Shown here: piece after piece, positions 27,726 through 40,062 of the stretch | Numbering within the stretch: position 1 is the first letter of the stretch | How the letters are laid out: every line of letters begins with the position of its first letter | Assembly: GCA_943787795.1 (NCBI GenBank) | Contig: CALSNU010000006.1 | Span: forward strand, 32,001 to 96,000 | Length of the DNA stretch: 64,000 nucleotides | DNA from: an uncultured bacterium | Lineage (GTDB): Bacteria; Planctomycetota; UBA1135; GCA-002686595 | Direction of reading: 5' to 3' | Notes under the pieces: model-generated | Seen by the model: the letters and a program-made list of their open reading frames with translations, nothing else | Databases searched by the model: none | What the model was told of the DNA's origin: nothing | Translations under genes and position numbers: made by a program

Positions 27726-30068
27726 TCAGTCGGGGTACTTGATCGTCGTCAGCTTCAGCGTCCCGTTGAAGGGGTAGGGCGCGTCGTCGTAGTAGTCCAG
27801 TGAGACCGGGGAGCCGAGGTCGCTACCCAGGTCGAGGCAATCGTTGGCCGTGAACGCGAAGGGCGCGGTCATGGGGACCTGCCCGCCAGCGACCCGCTTG
27901 CCGTTGACCTTGATGGTGATATCCATGGGCGATGCCGGCTTGGCCGCGGCGAGGCGCGAGGACACCTCGATGACCGCGGGGCCTACCGGGATCTTGGCGT
28001 CGCTCGTGAAGCGCGTCCGCTCGATCTCGAAGAGGTTGTACTCGTAGTTGATCTTGCCGTCCTTCAGGTAGACGGTCATGCCGCCGGAGAACGAGCCGAG
28101 TGCGTAGAGCACGCCCTCCGCGTTCTCGGGGATGTCCGCTTCGATGCGGACGTCATTGTCAAACTTGCCCAGCTTGGGCGCCGCGAACTCGGGCATCCGG
28201 TCGATGGTCCCTCGGAACGTCCAGTCCCGGTAGGGGGTCGCGGGCGCGTCTTCGGGGTGGTAGACGACCGACCAGAGGCCGCCGCCGATGGGGAGGTTGT
28301 TGTTCTTGACGGACTCCACCAGGAACATCTGCTTCATCGTCTCCACCTTCTCGGGCATGGCGCTGGCGAGGTTGTCCGCCTGGCTCCAGTCCTCGTCGAT
28401 GTTGTAGAGCTCCCAGACGTCGTTCTCCGGCGACCAGGTCGCGATGCCCTCCGGGAGGCCCGGGAGCCACGGCGTCCGCACCCCGAAGGTCCCGGCGAAC
28501 CACCCGTCGTGGTAGATGCCCCGGCTGCCCATGATGTCGAAGAACTGGGTGTTGCGCTCGCCCGGCGCGGCCGCGTCGTTCAGCGAGTACTTCATGCTGA
28601 TGCCGTCGATGGGGTCCTGGGGGATCCCGTTGACGGTGCGGGGCTGCTGGATATCCAGGAGCTCGTAGACGGTCGGGGCAATGTCGGCCACGTGGTGGAA
28701 CTGGGGCCGGGGCGTGGCCTCGGCCTTGATGCCCTTGGGCCACGAGACCGCGAGGGGCTGGCGGGTGCCGCCGAAGTGGGCACCCACGAGCTTCATGGAG
28801 CGGTACGGCGTGCTGCCGGCCCAGGCCCAGCCGGCGTGGTACATGTTGTCGGTCTTGGGCGTCCCGAGCGCGTCGAGGCCGCCAAGCTCCTCGAGGGCCT
28901 CAAGGTGCTGGTCGATGGTGGTGGGGATCGAGTTCTGGGCCAGGAGCTCGCTGATCGTTCCGTTCTGCCCTTCGCCCGAGGAGCCGTTGTCCCCCCAGAT
29001 GTAGAAGACGAGGGTGTTATCGAGGCGGCCCTGGGCCTCGATCTCGTCGATGACGCGACCGGCCTCATGGTCCGCGTGTTCGACGAAGCCTGCGAAGACC
29101 TCCATCAGGCGGGACTGGAAGGGCTTCTCCGACTCGGGGATGGAGTCCCAGGAGGCGAGGTTGTCGGGGCGCGGGGTGAGCTGGGCGTTCTGAGGGATCC
29201 AGCCCATGCGCTTGGCCCGCTCGTACGTGCGCTTGCGGTACTCGTCCCAGCCGTCGTCGAACTTGCCCGCGTAGCGGTCCGACCACTCCTTCATGATGTG
29301 GTGCGGACCGTGGGCGCAGCCGGTGGCCCAGTACATGAAGAAGGGCTTGTCGGGCGCGAAGGCCTGCTGCTCACGGAGCCAGTGGATGGCGTCGTCCGCG
29401 AGGTCCTCGGTGACGTGGTACCCCTCCCGGTCGATCTCCTCGTGGTGTACCGGGGTGGTGTTGCGCACCATGTTCGGCTCGTACTGGGAGGCCTCGCCGG
29501 CGAGGAAGCCGTAGAAGTGCTCGAACCCGTAGCCCGTGGGCCAGCGGTCGAAGGGACCCTTCGAGGTCGTCTCCTCGGCGGGGGTGTTGTGCCACTTACC
29601 CCAGGCGCCGGTGTTGTACCCGTAGGCCTTGAGGATCTCCGCCATGGTGGCGGAGGACTTGGGGATGGCGCCGCTGAAGCCGTCCCAATCGTTGGCGAGC
29701 TCACAGATCTGACCGTTCCCCACGCGGGTGTGGTTCCGACCGGTCAGGAGCGAGGCTCGCGTCGGCGAGCACATGGCCGTGGAGTGGAACCGGTTGTACG
29801 AGACCCCCTGCTTTGCGATCCGATCGAGGGTCGGCGTGTTGATCTCACCGCCGTAGGTCGAGGCGGTGCCAGGGCCCACGTCATCGATCAGGATGATCAG
29901 GATGTTCGGCGCATCCTCCGGAAGCCGTCGCGTGGCGACACGCTTCTTGTGGACCGAGTCCTTGATGGTCAGCCCAGGGGTAGACGCGCTGGGAGTCGGC
30001 GGAAACGGGAGGGTCTCCTGGGGCGCCGGGAGGGCGGCGGCCATGAGCAACAGGGCGGTGTGTAGCAT
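27726..30068 (-). CDS. Arylsulfatase (long AtsA-like type)
   Basis: PNILIILIDDVG, CSPTRASLLTGR, GKWH, GDNG and WELYN motifs; C-terminal beta-sandwich. Confidence 0.92.
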   Translation of the reverse strand: MLHTALLLMAAALPAPQETLPFPPTPSASTPGLTIKDSVHKKRVATRRLPEDAPNILIILIDDVGPGTASTYGGEINTPTLDRIAKQGVSYNRFHSTAMCSPTRASLLTGRNHTRVGNGQICELANDWDGFSGAIPKSSATMAEILKAYGYNTGAWGKWHNTPAEETTSKGPFDRWPTGYGFEHFYGFLAGEASQYEPNMVRNTTPVHHEEIDREGYHVTEDLADDAIHWLREQQAFAPDKPFFMYWATGCAHGPHHIMKEWSDRYAGKFDDGWDEYRKRTYERAKRMGWIPQNAQLTPRPDNLASWDSIPESEKPFQSRLMEVFAGFVEHADHEAGRVIDEIEAQGRLDNTLVFYIWGDNGSSGEGQNGTISELLAQNSIPTTIDQHLEALEELGGLDALGTPKTDNMYHAGWAWAGSTPYRSMKLVGAHFGGTRQPLAVSWPKGIKAEATPRPQFHHVADIAPTVYELLDIQQPRTVNGIPQDPIDGISMKYSLNDAAAPGERNTQFFDIMGSRGIYHDGWFAGTFGVRTPWLPGLPEGIATWSPENDVWELYNIDEDWSQADNLASAMPEKVETMKQMFLVESVKNNNLPIGGGLWSVVYHPEDAPATPYRDWTFRGTIDRMPEFAAPKLGKFDNDVRIEADIPENAEGVLYALGSFSGGMTVYLKDGKINYEYNLFEIERTRFTSDAKIPVGPAVIEVSSRLAAAKPASPMDITIKVNGKRVAGGQVPMTAPFAFTANDCLDLGSDLGSPVSLDYYDDAPYPFNGTLKLTTIKYPD

Positions 30069-30205
30069 CAGCGATGAGGGGAAGTTGTGGAGTCCCCTGC
30101 GGCCTGGGCCGCTCGGTCTCGAACGGCTCCCGCAAGGGGCGCTGACGCGGTGTCAGCGAGCGCTCCAGATAATCGCCAAGCTGCGACCACTTGCCAACAG
30201 AGTCC

Positions 30206-32099
30206 TTACCCGTCGCTCTCCTCGGGTGTTCCCCCAGTCCCCCGCACTTCGATCTGATGCGGGCCGCGCGGCTCGCCGCTCTCGAGGTCGAGGGTCACCC
30301 TCAGCGAGCACGGCGTCTGCGCGGGCAGGCCTCGAATGACCCCTTCAAGGGTCCTGCCGGGGGCCCCTGCCGCCGTCCAGCGCTCCTCGAGAAGGGGCTC
30401 GCCACCTTCGGCAGTGAAGACCAGGGACGCACCGGTGATCCGCTTCCCGCGGGGCGCGGTGAGGGTCATCGCGAGGTCAGCGGGCTCGTCGAGGGTCACA
30501 CGCCACCGGCCGTTCTTGCCCCAGCCCCGGCGCTCCTCGGCCTCCGGCCTCCAGTCCTGAATGGTGAGGACGACTGGCTCGCCCCCGAGCGTGATGTGGG
30601 GCGGAGCATAGGCCCGCACGCGGTCGGCGTGAGGGGCGTCTCGCGAGCCTGCGCCCACGACCTCGTCGAACCACCGGTCATAGGTGCCGGAGAGCGCTTG
30701 CAGGACTTCGGGGCGCTGACCGGAGAGGTCCTGCTGCTCGTAGGGATCGGCGGCGAGGTCGTAGAGCTCGGGGTCCCAGGCCGGAGGCACCTCGAGCTCG
30801 TCCCATGGGCGGGTCGCCTGGACGAGCTTGTGGTTCCCGAGGCGCACGAAGGCATGGTGGCGATGCAGCGGCGCGTCCCCCCGATGCCACTGGATCACCA
30901 GAGGGCGCGCGGCCGAGGCTTCGGCCGCGCCCGGTTCGTCCCTGAGGAGCGCGAGGGCCGAGATGCCGTCCAGGTCCTCCGGCGCCTCGTTGAGCGCGCC
31001 GCAGGCCTCAAGGACCGTGGGAAAGAGGTCCACGTGAGCTGCGTATCCCTCCGTACGGATGCCAGGTTCCAGGGTGCCTGGCCAGCGAGCAAAGAGCGGG
31101 CTGCGAACGCCTCCCTCGTAGACGCTCCCCTTGGCGCTGCGAAGACCTTGGTTGTAGCGCCGCCCCTGGGGACCGTTATCGCAGAGGAAGAGCAGCAGGG
31201 TGTTGTCCGCGAGCTCAGCGTCCTCGAGGAAGCGACTCAGCTGGCCCATGTTGACGTCGATGTTCTCGATCATCGCGTAGAGCCGGGCGAGCTTGTCCTC
31301 GTCTTTGAACGTCGCCTGGCGACCGGGCTCGCTGGCGAAGCGCTCGGGGCCAAGCTCCATCGCCGCATACTTGGAACGCAGCTCCTCGGGGACGTCATGC
31401 AGGGGCGTGTGCGGCGCGTTGGGCGTGATCACGCAGAGGAACGGGCGGCCGGCGTCGCTGCACGCCGCCATCCACCGCTCGGCCTCCTGGAAGTAGATGT
31501 CGGTGCAATACCCCTCGAAGCTCTCGGGCGCCCCGTCGTTCATCAGGACCGGGTCGGTGTAGCGGCCCTCGGCGCCAAGGGGATCCGAGGGTTGGCCAAT
31601 TCCGCCGCCCCGATGCACGACGCTGCGGCGAAAGCCCTGGTCCATCGGGCGCATGGGGGGCGCGTCGCCGAGGTGCCACTTGCCGAAGAGGCCGGTCTCC
31701 CAGCCCGCCGCCCCGAGGGCCTCGGCGAGGGTAACCTCCTCGGGCCGCATCATCGCCCGTCCGCGATAGGTGTCGATGGCCCCTGTTCTTTGGGGCTGGC
31801 GTCCGGTCATCAGCGCCGCCCGCGTCGGTGTGCAGACGGGGTGTACGTAGAAGTGCCGTAGCTGGACGCTCTCGCTTGCGAGTTGATCGAGGTGCGGTGT
31901 CTGCAGGGCAGGGTTGCCGTGGAGGGAGAGGTCGCCCCAGCCCTGGTCGTCGGTCATCACGAGGATGACGTTGAGCGCGTCGGCTGGAGCGTGGGCGGGC
32001 GGGGCCGGTCCGGTCGCGCCGCAGGCGGTGAGGCCCACGCTGAGCAGGAGGGTGAAGCGTGAGCGTGGGGCGGCCCGTGCCGTGGGGTTGAGGGGTCAT
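30206..32099 (-). CDS. Arylsulfatase (lipoprotein); ATG at 32099/32102 is one base out of frame with the signal peptide
   Basis: NVILVMTDDQG, CTPTRAALMTGR, GKWHLG and DNG. The in-frame upstream sequence RSRFTLLLSVGLTAC is a lipoprotein signal with no in-frame ATG. Confidence 0.85.
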
Positions 32100-36943: not shown

Positions 36944-37150
36944 GAAGGTGCGGATTGGCCGGTGCCTATCGTAGACGGATCGCTCAACACGCCAAAGGCT
37001 GGGGCGACTTCCGGTGGGGGAGGTTCTGAAAGACGCCTGGGGGCGCCGGGTCGGGCGCGCGCGCTTTTGCATGGCTGGCTCTGAGATCGACGCTACGCTC
37101 GACGTGTACGAGAAGAGCCACTTGCCCCGTCGCAGCGCGACCGAATTTCC

Positions 37151-38462
37151 ATGAGACGAACCCTCTTCGCCGCCGTCTTCACGGCGCTCTCGGCCCTCCC
37201 GCTCTTCGCGAGCGGCGACTTCCCACGCGAGAACCCCAACCCCGCGAAGGAGGCGCTCGAGGGCCACGCTCCCCCCGAGCTCCAGGTGGACGGTTGGATG
37301 AACACCGGGGGCGCGCCAATGGACTGGGCCTCCCTCGAAGGGAAGGTCGTGGTCCTCGACTTCTGGGGCACCTGGTGAGGCCCCTGTCGTGGTGCGGTGC
37401 CGGGTCTGAAGGACCTGGCGGCGCGCTACGGGGACCAGGGTCTGGTCCTGATCGGGGTGCACACGGCGAACGGCGGCGAGCGGATGGCCGCCTTCGTCGA
37501 GGAGCAGGGGATCGACTACCCCGTAGCGATCGACCGCCCGGGGAAGCCCACGGTGAGCGCCTTCGCGGTGGACTCCTTTCCTGACTACTACGTGGTGGAT
37601 CGCGCGGGCAAGGTCCGGGTCGCGGACCTCCAGAACGGGGCGCTCGAAGCCACGGTCCAGGCGCTCCTCGCCGAGCCCGCGCCCGTCAACCCTTCCGGCG
37701 GAGTTGATCGAAGCCGCCGAGCGCGCGGTTCGCAAGGACAAGAGGCTGCTGGTGCTCTTCGGGAGTGACGGTGATCGGGCCGCCTTCAACAAGGTGTCGC
37801 GGCTTGATCGGGCTCTGCGCCGGGAGATCAGCAACGAGTACGAGGCGGTCTCCGCTCCCCTGGGCGGGTCGCTCGCAGCGGCGCTCGGCGTGACCGCAAC
37901 GGAGCCCACTGCCCTGGCGCTGGACGCTGGCGGCGTCCCCCTGGGATCCATCGCCATGGACGGGCTTGACCGGGAGCGCATGTGGGCCTTCGCGCGGGAG
38001 CACAAGGTGGCGAGCGCGGACGCGGAGGTGATCCTCGCAGGCGCCCTCGCCCAGGCGACTCAGCAGAAGAAGCGCGTCCTGGTTCACCTCGGCGCTCCCT
38101 GGTGAGGCTGGTGCTTCAAGCTCGAGGAGTTCCTCGGGCGCCAGGGGGTCAAGGATCCCATGGAGCGTGACTACGTCACGATCAAGATCGACGTGGAGCG
38201 GAACGCGAACGGCGCCGCCGTGGCCAAGCGCCTTCGCGGAGAGCGGAGCGGGGGCATCCCGTGGATGGTCATCCTTGACGCCGATGGGAAGGAGCTGGTC
38301 TCCAGCGACGCGCCCACCGGAAATATCGGCTGCCCGGTCCAGCCCGAGGAGGTGGCCTGGTTTGGTGAGATGGTTCAGCGGAGCAGCATTCGCCTGGGGG
38401 ATGACGACGTCGCGGGCATCCTGGTGGAGCTCGAGGCTTACGCGAAGACCCAGCGGCGCTGA
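37151..38462 (+). CDS. Candidate exported selenoprotein: TlpA-like UxxC domain + Cys-less thioredoxin-like domain + second UxxC thioredoxin domain; in-frame TGA at 37376-37378 and 38103-38105; frameshift near 37690
   Basis: GKVVVLDFWGTW-TGA-GPCRGAVP continues in frame to FPDYYVVDRAGKV. RVLVHLGAPW-TGA-GWCFKL continues in frame to GIPWMVILDADGK. N-terminal signal peptide. Confidence 0.88.
37382..37440 (+). promoter_or_regulatory. Candidate bacterial SECIS element after the first UGA
   Basis: Apical stem GCCGGGTC/TGAAG/GACCTGGC (37399-37419), extended by CGTGGTGCG pairing with CGCGCTACG. Folded by eye. Confidence 0.5.
38108..38144 (+). promoter_or_regulatory. Candidate bacterial SECIS element after the second UGA
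   Basis: Apical stem CTCGAGG/AGTT/CCTCGGG (38121-38138) with GU in the loop; lower stem CTGGTG pairing with CGCCAG. Confidence 0.55.
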
Positions 38463-38568
38463 GCTCGTGGGCAGGGGCGTCTCGCGGCTGGAGAGGCGGC
38501 GCGGGCCGCGGCACTGAAGGGCCCGGTGACGTCCGCTGGAGCTTCGGGGCGCGCGTGGAGGAGGCAAA

Positions 38569-38600
38569 CGGCGGAGCGGCGCTGAGGCGCCGCTCCGCCG
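38569..38600. terminator. Perfect 14-bp inverted repeat
   Basis: CGGCGGAGCGGCGC-TGAG-GCGCCGCTCCGCCG between the thioredoxin gene and the sulfatase. No U-tract. Confidence 0.45.
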
Positions 38601-38622: not shown

Positions 38623-40062
38623 ATGTTCAGTCTGATCTTCGCGGCGTGCATCGCCCCCGGCCTCGGCCCCTTGACCGCAGCGGCAGCGGCAGCGCCTCTG
38701 CCGGCGACGCGGATGGTCCAGGAGGACGGCACACCTGGGGCGACAGGGGGCCGGCCTCCCAGCCTTGTGGTGGTGCTCGCGGATGACCTCGGCTGGGGGG
38801 ACATCGGGTGTCAGGGGCAGGAGAAGATCCTGACGCCGTGGATCGACCGCATGGCGGCGGAGGGCATGCGCTTCTCCGCGGGCTACGCTGGCTCGACGGT
38901 CTGTGCGCCCAGCCGCTCGGTGCTCATGACGGGGATGCACGCCGGCCACACGCGGGTGCGCGGGAATCGTCGGGTCCCCTTGCGCGATGAGGACGTCACG
39001 GTGGCGGAGGTGCTCAAGGGCCAGGGCTATCGCACCGCCCTCTTCGGGAAGTGGGGGCTTGGCAACGCCGGGAGCAGCGGGCACCCGGTACGCCAGGGCT
39101 TCGAGCGCTTCTTTGGCTTCTCCGATCAGCTCCACGCCCACAACTCCTACCCGACGCACCTCTGGGACGGGGAGCAGCGAGTGGAGCTCTCGAACGTCGT
39201 CCCAGGCGAGGGGAAGTGGGGCCAGGGCAAGGCCAGTGAGCGTCATGACTGGGCCCCCGCGCGGATTCACCGGGAGGCCATGGGGTGGCTCCGCAGCATC
39301 TCGGATGACGAGCCCTTCTTCCTGTACCTCGCCAGCACGATCCCACACGCCAACAACGAGGCCGGGTCGGACGGCATGGAGGTGCCGGAGCTGGGGGTGT
39401 ACGCCGACCGGCCCTGGCCCAGGCGTCAGCGAGAGCACGCGGCGATGGTGTCTGCGCTCGATCGCCAGGTCGGCGAACTGCTCGAGACGCTCGCTTCAAT
39501 GGGGCGCGACGAGGACACGCTGGTGATCTTCCTCTCCGATAACGGACCCCACCGTGAGGGCGGTAACGACCCTGACTTCGCTGACTCCAACGGGCCCTAC
39601 CGTGGGATCAAGCGTGCCCTCACGGAGGGCGGGATCCGGGTGCCCTTCATCGCGCGTTGGCCAGGCACGGTCGAGGCTGGGGTCGTGAATGACAGCCCGG
39701 TGCACTTCCAGGATCTGTTCGCCACGGCTGGGGCGCTGGCCGGCGCCGAGGTGCCCGCGGGGCTCGACTCACGGGACCTCCTGCCCACGCTCAGGGGCGC
39801 CAGTCCACCGCCGTCGACGCCCCTGTACTGGGAGTTCCACGAGCGTGGTTCAGCCGAGGCCGTGCGCTTCGGAAGGTGGAAGGCGATCCGCTCGCCGATG
39901 CAGACGGGCTCCATTCGCCTCTTTGATCTCACGGACGACCCAGGTGAGGACCGAGACCTCGCCCTGGGGCCAGACTACACGGAGCGGGTGCAGGAGGCGG
40001 CGCGCTACATGGACGCCGCCCACCTCCCCTCAGCCGAGTTCAAGACCCCGGCTGAGCGCTGA
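38623..40062 (+). CDS. Arylsulfatase / GalNAc-6-sulfatase-like
   Basis: LADDLGWGD, CAPSRSVLMTG, GKWGLG, PHANNE, SDNG and EGGIRVP motifs. Confidence 0.92.
   Translation: MFSLIFAACIAPGLGPLTAAAAAAPLPATRMVQEDGTPGATGGRPPSLVVVLADDLGWGDIGCQGQEKILTPWIDRMAAEGMRFSAGYAGSTVCAPSRSVLMTGMHAGHTRVRGNRRVPLRDEDVTVAEVLKGQGYRTALFGKWGLGNAGSSGHPVRQGFERFFGFSDQLHAHNSYPTHLWDGEQRVELSNVVPGEGKWGQGKASERHDWAPARIHREAMGWLRSISDDEPFFLYLASTIPHANNEAGSDGMEVPELGVYADRPWPRRQREHAAMVSALDRQVGELLETLASMGRDEDTLVIFLSDNGPHREGGNDPDFADSNGPYRGIKRALTEGGIRVPFIARWPGTVEAGVVNDSPVHFQDLFATAGALAGAEVPAGLDSRDLLPTLRGASPPPSTPLYWEFHERGSAEAVRFGRWKAIRSPMQTGSIRLFDLTDDPGEDRDLALGPDYTERVQEAARYMDAAHLPSAEFKTPAER

Follow-up and report, generated by a model that had tools for sequence, protein, structure and literature searches.

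A fragmented reading frame in a planctomycete contig

The stretch of DNA analysed here (hereafter the window) comprises 64,000 nucleotides (nt) of contig CALSNU010000006.1, assembled from an uncultured member of the Planctomycetota (GCA_943787795.1), and its forward strand carries, at 37,151 to 38,462, what is very likely a real gene missed by annotation. As predicted from sequence, its product would be an exported thioredoxin-fold protein of ~436 residues with three domains and two selenocysteine (Sec, U) residues (Table 1). Under translation table 11 the locus yields four plus-strand open reading frames (ORFs), namely 37151..37378 (75 amino acids, aa), 37397..37768 (123 aa), 37704..38105 (133 aa) and 38160..38462 (100 aa). 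Reading through TGA from the ATG at 37151 gives ...VVVLDFWGTW-U-GPCRGAVPGL... (TGA at 37376-37378), and the same treatment of the frame of 37704 gives ...VLVHLGAPW-U-GWCFKLEEF... (TGA at 38103-38105), with the motifs FPDYY and GGIPWMV lying past the respective TGAs. An earlier note on this DNA had placed the two codons inside DFWGTW--GPC and LGAPW--GWC within four ORF fragments, in agreement with both the sequence and the table 11 calls, and its observation that the thioredoxin fold carries on past each of them is supported by the translations and by the conservation of homologues downstream of each TGA.

The halves of the locus before and after ~37690 are in different frames (+1). Past this junction, frame 1 is arginine-rich junk up to a TGA at 37766-37768, and frame 2, which is open upstream of 37560, is junk upstream of ~37690 and has its earliest start codon at 37704 (TTG). 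Joining the two halves at 37690 therefore requires skipping one base: the product of about 436 aa proposed in the earlier note has the length seen in orthologues, but the window copy as assembled does not encode it without this correction.

Table 1. Features of the locus (window coordinates unless a contig is given) and the evidence for each.
Feature	Position	Strand	Evidence or remark
Whole gene (very likely)	37151..38462	+	~436 aa in orthologues; +1 frame change near 37682-37684 in the window
Predicted Sec-type signal peptide	37151..37210	+	MRRTLFAAVFTALSALPLFA, cleavage before SGDF; read by eye
TlpA/ResA-like thioredoxin-fold domain (AhpC-TSA / Redoxin), W-U-G-P-C	37274..37621	+	Pfam, NCBIfam, Foldseek
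In-frame TGA 1, very probably Sec (U76)	37376..37378	+	Column comparison, independent contigs
Candidate selenocysteine insertion sequence (SECIS) hairpin 1	37388..37430	+	Two stacked stems, apical loop GAA at 37408-37410
C run with one extra base, frame change	37682..37684	+	Orthologue alignment and independent contigs
Middle degenerate Trx_7-like domain, CxxC lost	37689..38009	+	Alignment, hhalign, orthologue model
C-terminal Trx_7 domain (DsbD-gamma / DsbH-like), W-U-G-W-C, GGIPW, helical tail	38010..38459	+	Pfam, alignment
In-frame TGA 2, very probably Sec	38103..38105	+	Column comparison, independent contigs
Candidate SECIS hairpin 2	38120..38139	+	GCUCGAGG-AGUU-CCUCGGGC, 8 base pairs and tetraloop
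True stop codon TGA	38460..38462	+	Three-domain orthologues also end in TGA
TGA sites of six other thioredoxin-fold ORFs	C2:496829-496831 (-), C1:753692-753694, C4:789560-789562, C1:189924-189926, C1:576892-576894, C7:99960-99962		Outside the window

Selenocysteine and cysteine at the two sites among relatives

Homologous loci (L022 to L032) were fetched and translated with TGA read through. A first search, with the middle and C-terminal part as query, gave matches in 82 of 101 genomes of the window's family, the best full-length matches each containing one TGA. Seven loci from as many genomes (L022-L028), two of them from the window's genus (L022 and L023) and the others from five other genera, hold a single continuous frame of 435-448 aa with both TGAs, in the motifs FWGTW-U-GPC (FWGKW-U-PPC in L025) and APW-U-[G/S]WC. 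TGA occupies the first site in seven of the eight three-domain loci translated and the second in 10 of the 11 related loci, the exception being in both cases L031, which has Cys codons instead (TGT and TGC, respectively). Three of these loci (L029, L030 and L032) encode shorter proteins devoid of the N-terminal domain, with U in UGWC.

With full-length L023 as query, a second search covered 301 genomes of the order (labelled G, with G000 the genome of the window; E <= 1e-40) and detected full-length matches with two TGAs in 13 genomes from five genera, all within the window's family, as well as a match with one TGA in G080 and one with none in G020. G000 itself appears as two matches of one TGA each because of its frame break. 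Adding two genomes from the first search (G037 and G022), both TGAs are found in 15 other genomes representing seven genera, and the other families of the order have either the N domain alone or the middle-plus-C part only, with one TGA each. Compared with L023, Sec forms from other genera are 48-56% identical and the Cys form L031 is 41% identical, with conservation past both TGAs. That both TGAs recur in their respective columns in 15 other genomes goes beyond chance, and homologues have either an in-frame TGA or, as in the Cys/Cys locus L031, Cys at both sites, as the earlier note had anticipated. We therefore consider both internal TGAs to be very probably Sec codons. All eight three-domain orthologues (L022-L028 and L031) and the window gene end in TGA as well, so that one mRNA would hold two Sec UGAs together with a terminating UGA.

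Beyond these forms, genus g21 has all three states: two TGAs in G258, one in G080, and Cys at both sites in G020 (the source of L031). The C-terminal part of the G080 match is free of TGA, which places its TGA in the N-terminal part, and the three states look like a series of recent Sec/Cys exchanges. In family f10 (G283, G216, G253, G149 and others), N-domain homologues 57-63% identical and with one TGA occur in open frames of 346-927 aa that have neither the middle nor the C domain. Finally, in the metagenome runs compared below, many short contigs of other organisms match only 37343-37392 (VVLDFWGTW-TGA/TGC-GPC) and then diverge, which indicates that this active-site DNA motif is common to many marine redoxin genes, some of them with TGC.

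Hairpins after the UGA codons and the selenocysteine machinery

A candidate hairpin starts 12-17 nt past each internal UGA, and none of this kind follows the terminal UGA. Both fit the feature given for bacterial SECIS elements in an excerpt of PMC1088965 (a stem-loop right after the UGA whose small apical loop includes a G), and both are lost in the Cys form. At the first site, the window hairpin folds at -43 kcal/mol (z -4.36; none of 200 shuffles did as well), and a hairpin is found in all eight Sec forms with its apical loop ~30-36 nt from the UGA (per-sequence z-scores -0.9 to -5.6), the stem sequences differing and the register sliding by one base. Folding every sequence separately is here more informative than RNAalifold. 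The Cys form has no hairpin at this site (-11.4 kcal/mol, z +0.9).

Hairpin 2 is nucleotide-identical in eight of 11 Sec forms, despite the divergence of the full-length proteins from other genera noted above. L024 keeps all eight pairs with three of them changed (C-G to U-A, G-C to C-G and U-G to U-A), and the same changes alter its amino acids (KLEEFLG to KFQEFLE); L032 has a G-C to A-U change. Across the alignment, 98.9% of 88 cells are paired and three pairs are changed on both sides, a level reached by one in 500 shuffles, against 32-60% paired in slid controls. The Cys form has two stem mismatches and no hairpin.

The source assembly (4.71 Mb in 8 contigs, 84.9% complete) encodes the four components of the Sec machinery, all above curated cut-offs. 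These are a tRNA-Sec (selC; Rfam 69 bits vs. cut-off 47, ARAGORN anticodon tca) located on a contig other than that of the window, within which ARAGORN predicted no tRNA, selA (456.6 bits vs. 267.9), selB (350.2 bits with its neighbouring stretch vs. 242.25) and selD (327.2 bits vs. 125), so that the search for these genes suggested in the earlier note recovered every one of them. Neither selA nor selB has internal stops, and selD has one in-frame TGA, for which reason it probably encodes a selenoprotein itself. Outside the window, selA adjoins selD at C5:184589-187201.

Domain architecture and export

Full-length alignment, fold prediction and family scans were conducted on the same-genus orthologue L023, which stood in for the window protein. 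The N domain (residues 42-159) scores well above Pfam gathering thresholds for PF00578 (64 bits vs. 26) and PF08534 (62.2 vs. 26.6), and its best hits among NCBIfam models are ResA (71.7 vs. 170), DsbE (59.8 vs. 123.15) and TlpA (49.4 vs. 230). Judging from these scores, it would work like ResA, DsbE and TlpA, and is not a member of these named families. The peroxidatic motif of peroxiredoxins, PxxxTxxC/U (PMC13188914), is absent: L-D-F-W-G-T-W precedes U76, lacking both a P at -7 and a T at -3, and the site reads WUGPC.

The C domain matches PF13899 (43.7 bits vs. 27) and PF03190 (DUF255/DsbH; 31.8 vs. 27), and its alignment has 27 invariant columns, WUGWC and GGIPW being invariant or nearly so; the proline of GGIPW we take to be the cis-Pro. 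Scores stay below cut-off for the NCBIfam models of DsbH (25.3 vs. 190) and DsbD (20.3 vs. 330), as well as for the double-selenoprotein models TsoB (NF045694, 46.4 vs. 805) and ResA-like WAxxUGC (NF041054, 40.8 vs. 300), and no NCBIfam model claims the three-domain architecture. Also in the C domain, the Cys of GN[IV]GCP (window 38319-38336; alignment A5) is nearly invariant, with GNCGCP (CxC) in three orthologues and Y or F in place of that Cys in some Cys forms.

The middle domain has LFGSD--GDRAAF where public Cys proteins with two tandem Trx_7 domains have GGNWCxWCYKL, and aligns column for column with the first Trx_7 domain of three of them (P0011, P0016 and P0018). Its BLASTP match to P0016 is weak (E 0.017), and comparison with the C-domain profile gives an hhalign probability of 96.1% (E 3.2e-9). 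At the level of sequence, this profile-profile comparison settles the middle domain as a Cys-less Trx_7 paralogue, which makes more precise the "Cys-less thioredoxin-like" domain of the earlier note.

An AlphaFold2 model of L023 (alignment A3) has three beta-alpha domains at a mean predicted local distance difference test score (pLDDT) of 86.9 and a predicted template modelling score (pTM) of 0.60, with residues 1-21 below a pLDDT of 50. Foldseek relates the N domain of this model to the C-terminal domain of DipZ, to ResA and to DsbE-like structures (2hyx, 5cyy, 1st9 and 3gl3; E 4e-11 to 1e-9, template modelling (TM) score 0.8 on the target), such N-domain matches making up most of what the whole model retrieved. 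Multi-domain chains resembling protein disulfide isomerase (PDI) were also returned, at TM 0.17-0.19, and were given no weight. The N-termini of nine sequences consist of a basic start rich in K and R, a hydrophobic core and small residues ahead of a conserved D-F-x-R-E, from which, together with the low pLDDT of residues 1-21, a Sec-type signal peptide and export of the protein are predicted.

Representation in public protein databases

A word-indexed search of public proteins returned 54 sequences. The closest six (79-99% identical) are 235-aa ORFs that run in one continuous frame from just past TGA 1 to the HLGAPW before TGA 2, and the remainder are mostly Cys forms of 310-380 aa with two Trx_7 domains and CxxC in both. 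An exhaustive profile search extended this to 1,220 proteins (E <= 1e-30). Among the best 150 representatives, of which eight were read, five to six clusters are Sec/Sec and one is Cys/Cys, the latter represented in full length by P0059 (443 aa), which is named "redoxin family protein [Planctomycetota bacterium]" at source. The same 150 include inter-TGA fragments of 226-239 aa, unnamed at source (P0010, P0103, P0130, P0134 and P0150), and an ORF ending at the second TGA (P0194). The P0005 cluster has a 75-aa member that matches window ORF 37151..37378 by its length alone. The earlier note had foreseen that automated annotation would miss the gene, and indeed public calls hold its pieces and name only the rare Cys/Cys form. 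A conserved marine Planctomycetota enzyme, predicted to be exported, is therefore invisible to annotation.

Two further proteins, P0060 (WQDKC) and P0071 (no Cys), begin past TGA 1 and reach the C-terminus with a degenerate second site, so that loss of the second redox centre is compatible with retention of Sec at the first.

Genomic context and other TGA-containing ORFs

Within the window, the gene lies near sulfatases, a PQQ/BamB-like propeller and a MacB-type ABC exporter. Three sulfatase genes surround the locus (27726-32038 and 38623-40062), the downstream one being of the Cys type (C-A-P-S-R). Gene order with respect to the sulfatase and the PQQ/BamB-like gene is conserved within the genus only. 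In the flanks of orthologues from other genera, where the longer 30 of 61 listed ORFs were scanned, we found unrelated genes, namely those for TPR, HEAT, lysine-decarboxylase-like, beta-CASP, BlaR/BlaI-like, flagellar hook and peptidase S10 proteins. The genome has one DsbD_TM gene, on a different contig (C2:479902-480519).

Scanning the genome in six frames with hidden Markov models (HMMs) built from the N and C domains revealed another six thioredoxin-fold ORFs in which TGA takes the place of the first Cys of CxxC, the fold continuing downstream. Five are TlpA/redoxin-like (sites uPPC, uGPC in three cases, and uAGC) and one is Trx_7-like (uSQC). TGA stands at this position in six of the 10 N-domain HMM hits of the genome, the gene described here included. 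Together with the other UxxC ORFs, this indicates that the use of Sec at this position is systematic in the genome.

Proposed function and alternative explanations

The most likely role for the protein, given its domain homologies, is that of a thiol-disulfide reductase in a periplasmic reducing pathway. In this scheme, SelB and Sec-tRNA(Sec) would decode both internal UGAs as Sec, guided by the hairpin after each, and the third, terminal UGA, which has no such hairpin, would end translation. The Sec-type signal peptide would direct the protein to the periplasm, where it would present two selenenylsulfide/selenol-thiol centres, a TlpA/ResA-like W-U-G-P-C and a W-U-G-W-C of the DsbD-gamma/DsbH-like Trx_7 type, separated by the inactive Trx_7 paralogue. 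Electrons may flow from cytoplasmic thioredoxin through a CcdA/DsbD-type membrane protein to this protein, and from there to oxidised proteins of the periplasm. With Sec as the attacking residue, the centres would be more nucleophilic and, in oxic sea water, better protected from over-oxidation.

The same protein could have another job, either as a selenium-based scavenger of peroxide or hydroperoxide, or as a maturation factor for cytochrome c, copper centres or the nearby Cys-type sulfatases. The N domain does score on the AhpC-TSA model, its nearest named families are ResA, DsbE and TlpA, and sulfatase genes flank the gene in the genus, the downstream one with a C-x-P-x-R motif. The site is however of the thioredoxin WUxxC type and devoid of the PxxxTxxC/U motif, the sulfatase synteny does not extend beyond the genus, and no cytochrome-maturation genes were seen nearby, so that we regard such a role as possible and less probable than that of a reductase.

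Whatever its role, reading the locus as one intact gene for a double selenoprotein has to accommodate several observations that weigh against it. The window copy is frameshifted as assembled, and the sole metagenomic contig identical to it ends at 37683 (run X1, see below). Contigs of an RNA library (run X16) over 37683-38457 are possibly derived from DNA. The gene is present in only seven of 14 other genomes of the window's genus (E <= 1e-40). Hairpin 1 has no single conserved register, and because its register slides the RNAalifold consensus over eight sequences is weak (-6.25 kcal/mol, covariation term +0.31); the L024 fold at this site has a z of only -0.9. Several 57-nt stretches after UGA2 likewise have weak z (-0.3 to -1.9), because only the 20-nt hairpin is conserved there. 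A search of 37000-38600 against Rfam at E <= 10 gave chance hits only, and no SECIS family for either hairpin. As for the protein, every NCBIfam hit is under its cut-off and the middle domain alone has no Pfam match. Lastly, no neighbour gene is conserved outside the genus (flanks of six orthologues from other genera), and the assignment of function therefore draws on domain homology alone.

As to the frame change, the window reads gcgCCCgtc where the same-genus orthologues L022 and L023 read gcg-CCg in the nucleotide alignment. The stretch is present in marine metagenome runs of 11 studies, and Logan contigs of four runs (X1, X3, X5 and X16) were compared with it. Contigs of X3 and X5, from two studies, cover 37363-38470 with 8-9 substitutions, lack one base at 37682 and have a continuous frame. 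Those of X1 show 0 differences from the window over 37140-37683 and 37801-38470, with no contig bridging 37684-37800. Both TGAs are unchanged in X1, X3 and X5 (three studies), two X16 contigs keep the second TGA, and no run has another letter at either site, so that the TGC or TGT that the earlier note would have taken as refutation did not appear in these assemblies. As relatives and two independent assemblies are without it, the additional C probably arose as a single-base assembly error in a homopolymer.

If the extra C were real, the gene of this strain would be a freshly broken pseudogene, or would encode only an exported N-terminal UGPC domain with a junk tail, and members of the family in other genomes would nonetheless be functional double selenoproteins. 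The window sequence does read CCC, the window-identical X1 contig ends without bridging, as contigs do where strains differ, and the patchy presence within the genus shows that the gene is partly dispensable. Against this, the contigs from the two other studies are ~99% identical and lack the base, as do both same-genus orthologues aligned; nine of eleven cluster members 99% identical to the window are continuous 235-aa forms; apart from the frame change, each half of the window copy is intact and retains its hairpin; and the site is a homopolymer in an assembly whose 8 contigs and 84.9% completeness would fit long reads with residual indels. We thus judge a real frameshift to be unlikely.

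Far less plausible is that the TGAs are true stops, separating four small genes or marking a dead gene with two nonsense mutations. Table 11 does call four ORFs and public gene callers do report the pieces, but in these a start, a signal peptide or half of the fold is missing, and both TGAs sit at catalytic columns in the 15 other genomes, at identities down to 48% and with the downstream part fully conserved, are each followed by a hairpin, and are replaced by Cys at both sites in L031. Least credible of all is a genome-wide reassignment of TGA (e.g., to Trp or Gly) or a miscalled TGC/TGT, for which nothing but the open frame under TGA read-through speaks, and against which stand the terminal TGA of the window gene and its eight three-domain orthologues, selA and selB frames uninterrupted by stops, the alignment of TGA with Cys and not with Trp or Gly, the complete Sec machinery and the concurrence of contigs from three studies on TGA.

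Relation to known systems and significance

From 2005 onwards, marine metagenomes have yielded predicted UxxC selenoproteins of TlpA-like, Redoxin, Prx-like and Thioredoxin_2 type, according to excerpts of PMC1088965 and PMC2398784. A 2026 review counts 119 selenoprotein families, most with one Sec and a small subset with two to three, including fusion "double selenoproteins" (PMC13188914). Table 1 of that review has no entry in which UxxC domains of the TlpA-like and Trx_7 types occur together, and PF13899 and PF03190 are not mentioned in its text. A full-text literature search found no description of the architecture, in a corpus to which subscription journals are mostly external and which leaves its absence unproven. 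The earlier note did not recognise this architecture as described, and it is indeed missing from the 2026 inventory, but each of its two domain types already figures among the catalogued UxxC families, and double selenoproteins are known from bacteria. What is new here is the fused three-domain architecture with two Sec residues, and not UxxC thioredoxin-fold selenoproteins or bacterial double selenoproteins as such.

The nearest counterparts of the N domain are the marine TlpA-like UxxC families (PMC1088965; PMC13188914), which, in the portions of these papers that describe them, resemble it in their TlpA/ResA-type fold, in the Sec at the first position of CxxC, in their origin from marine bacteria, in having Cys homologues and in a hairpin with a small G-containing apical loop just past the UGA. 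Marine UxxC families are listed there with one Sec per domain (1~2 for Prx-like, as UxxU in one motif), whereas here the domain is fused to two more thioredoxin folds, and the protein has its second Sec in a different domain family. The extracytoplasmic reductases ResA, CcmG (DsbE), TlpA and the C-terminal domain of DipZ share with it the N-domain fold, a site of the W-C-x-x-C type and a predicted location outside the cytoplasm, but they use Cys, and the gene described here scores far under the NCBIfam cut-offs and has no cytochrome-maturation context.

The middle and C domains are collinear, at 30-43% identity, with the tandem Trx_7 proteins of Planctomycetota and relatives annotated as "thioredoxin family protein" or "thiol:disulfide interchange protein" (P0011-P0054; 310-380 aa), with HLGAPWCGWC, GGIPW and GNIGCP in common. 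In those proteins CxxC is present in each Trx_7 domain and a TlpA-like domain is absent; here, the first Trx_7 domain is without CxxC, the second carries Sec, and the N-terminus consists of an additional TlpA-like domain with a Sec of its own. Like the bacterial double selenoprotein TsoB, the protein would have more than one Sec per polypeptide through the fusion of Sec-using domains, and its C domain shares the DsbD-gamma-like fold of TsoB (46.4 bits, profile positions 466-550), but TsoB has a UxxxxU motif and a cut-off of 805 bits, and the domains and motifs of the two differ.

The succession of active, inactive and active thioredoxin folds in a protein predicted to be exported also recalls PDI (a-b-b'-a'), a likeness of layout only, as the Foldseek scores given above attest; PDI is eukaryotic, uses Cys and has four domains, and no sequence relationship is shown. 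On this layout one may speculate, though we hold it to be doubtful, that the protein is a bacterial selenium-based counterpart of PDI, in which the Cys-less middle Trx_7 domain would hold substrates and the two Se-S centres would act jointly, either as an internal relay from the DsbD-gamma-like to the TlpA-like domain or as an isomerase. Taken with the six other UxxC ORFs, this lineage of marine Planctomycetota would then run most of its periplasmic thiol-redox chemistry on selenium in place of sulfur, and selection would hold Sec at both sites, in line with the five to six Sec/Sec clusters against one Cys/Cys cluster.

Returning to a two-Sec protein whose most likely role is that of a periplasmic reductase, the fusion of two different thioredoxin-fold families joins the short list of bacterial proteins with several Sec residues. 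The gene offers a natural test case for how SelB discriminates, within a single mRNA, between a pair of Sec UGAs and a UGA that ends translation, and genus g21, with its two-TGA, one-TGA and TGA-free states, provides a way into the study of Sec/Cys exchange. Together with the other UxxC ORFs of the genome, the gene suggests that, in oxic sea water, the periplasmic redox chemistry of these bacteria depends heavily on selenium.

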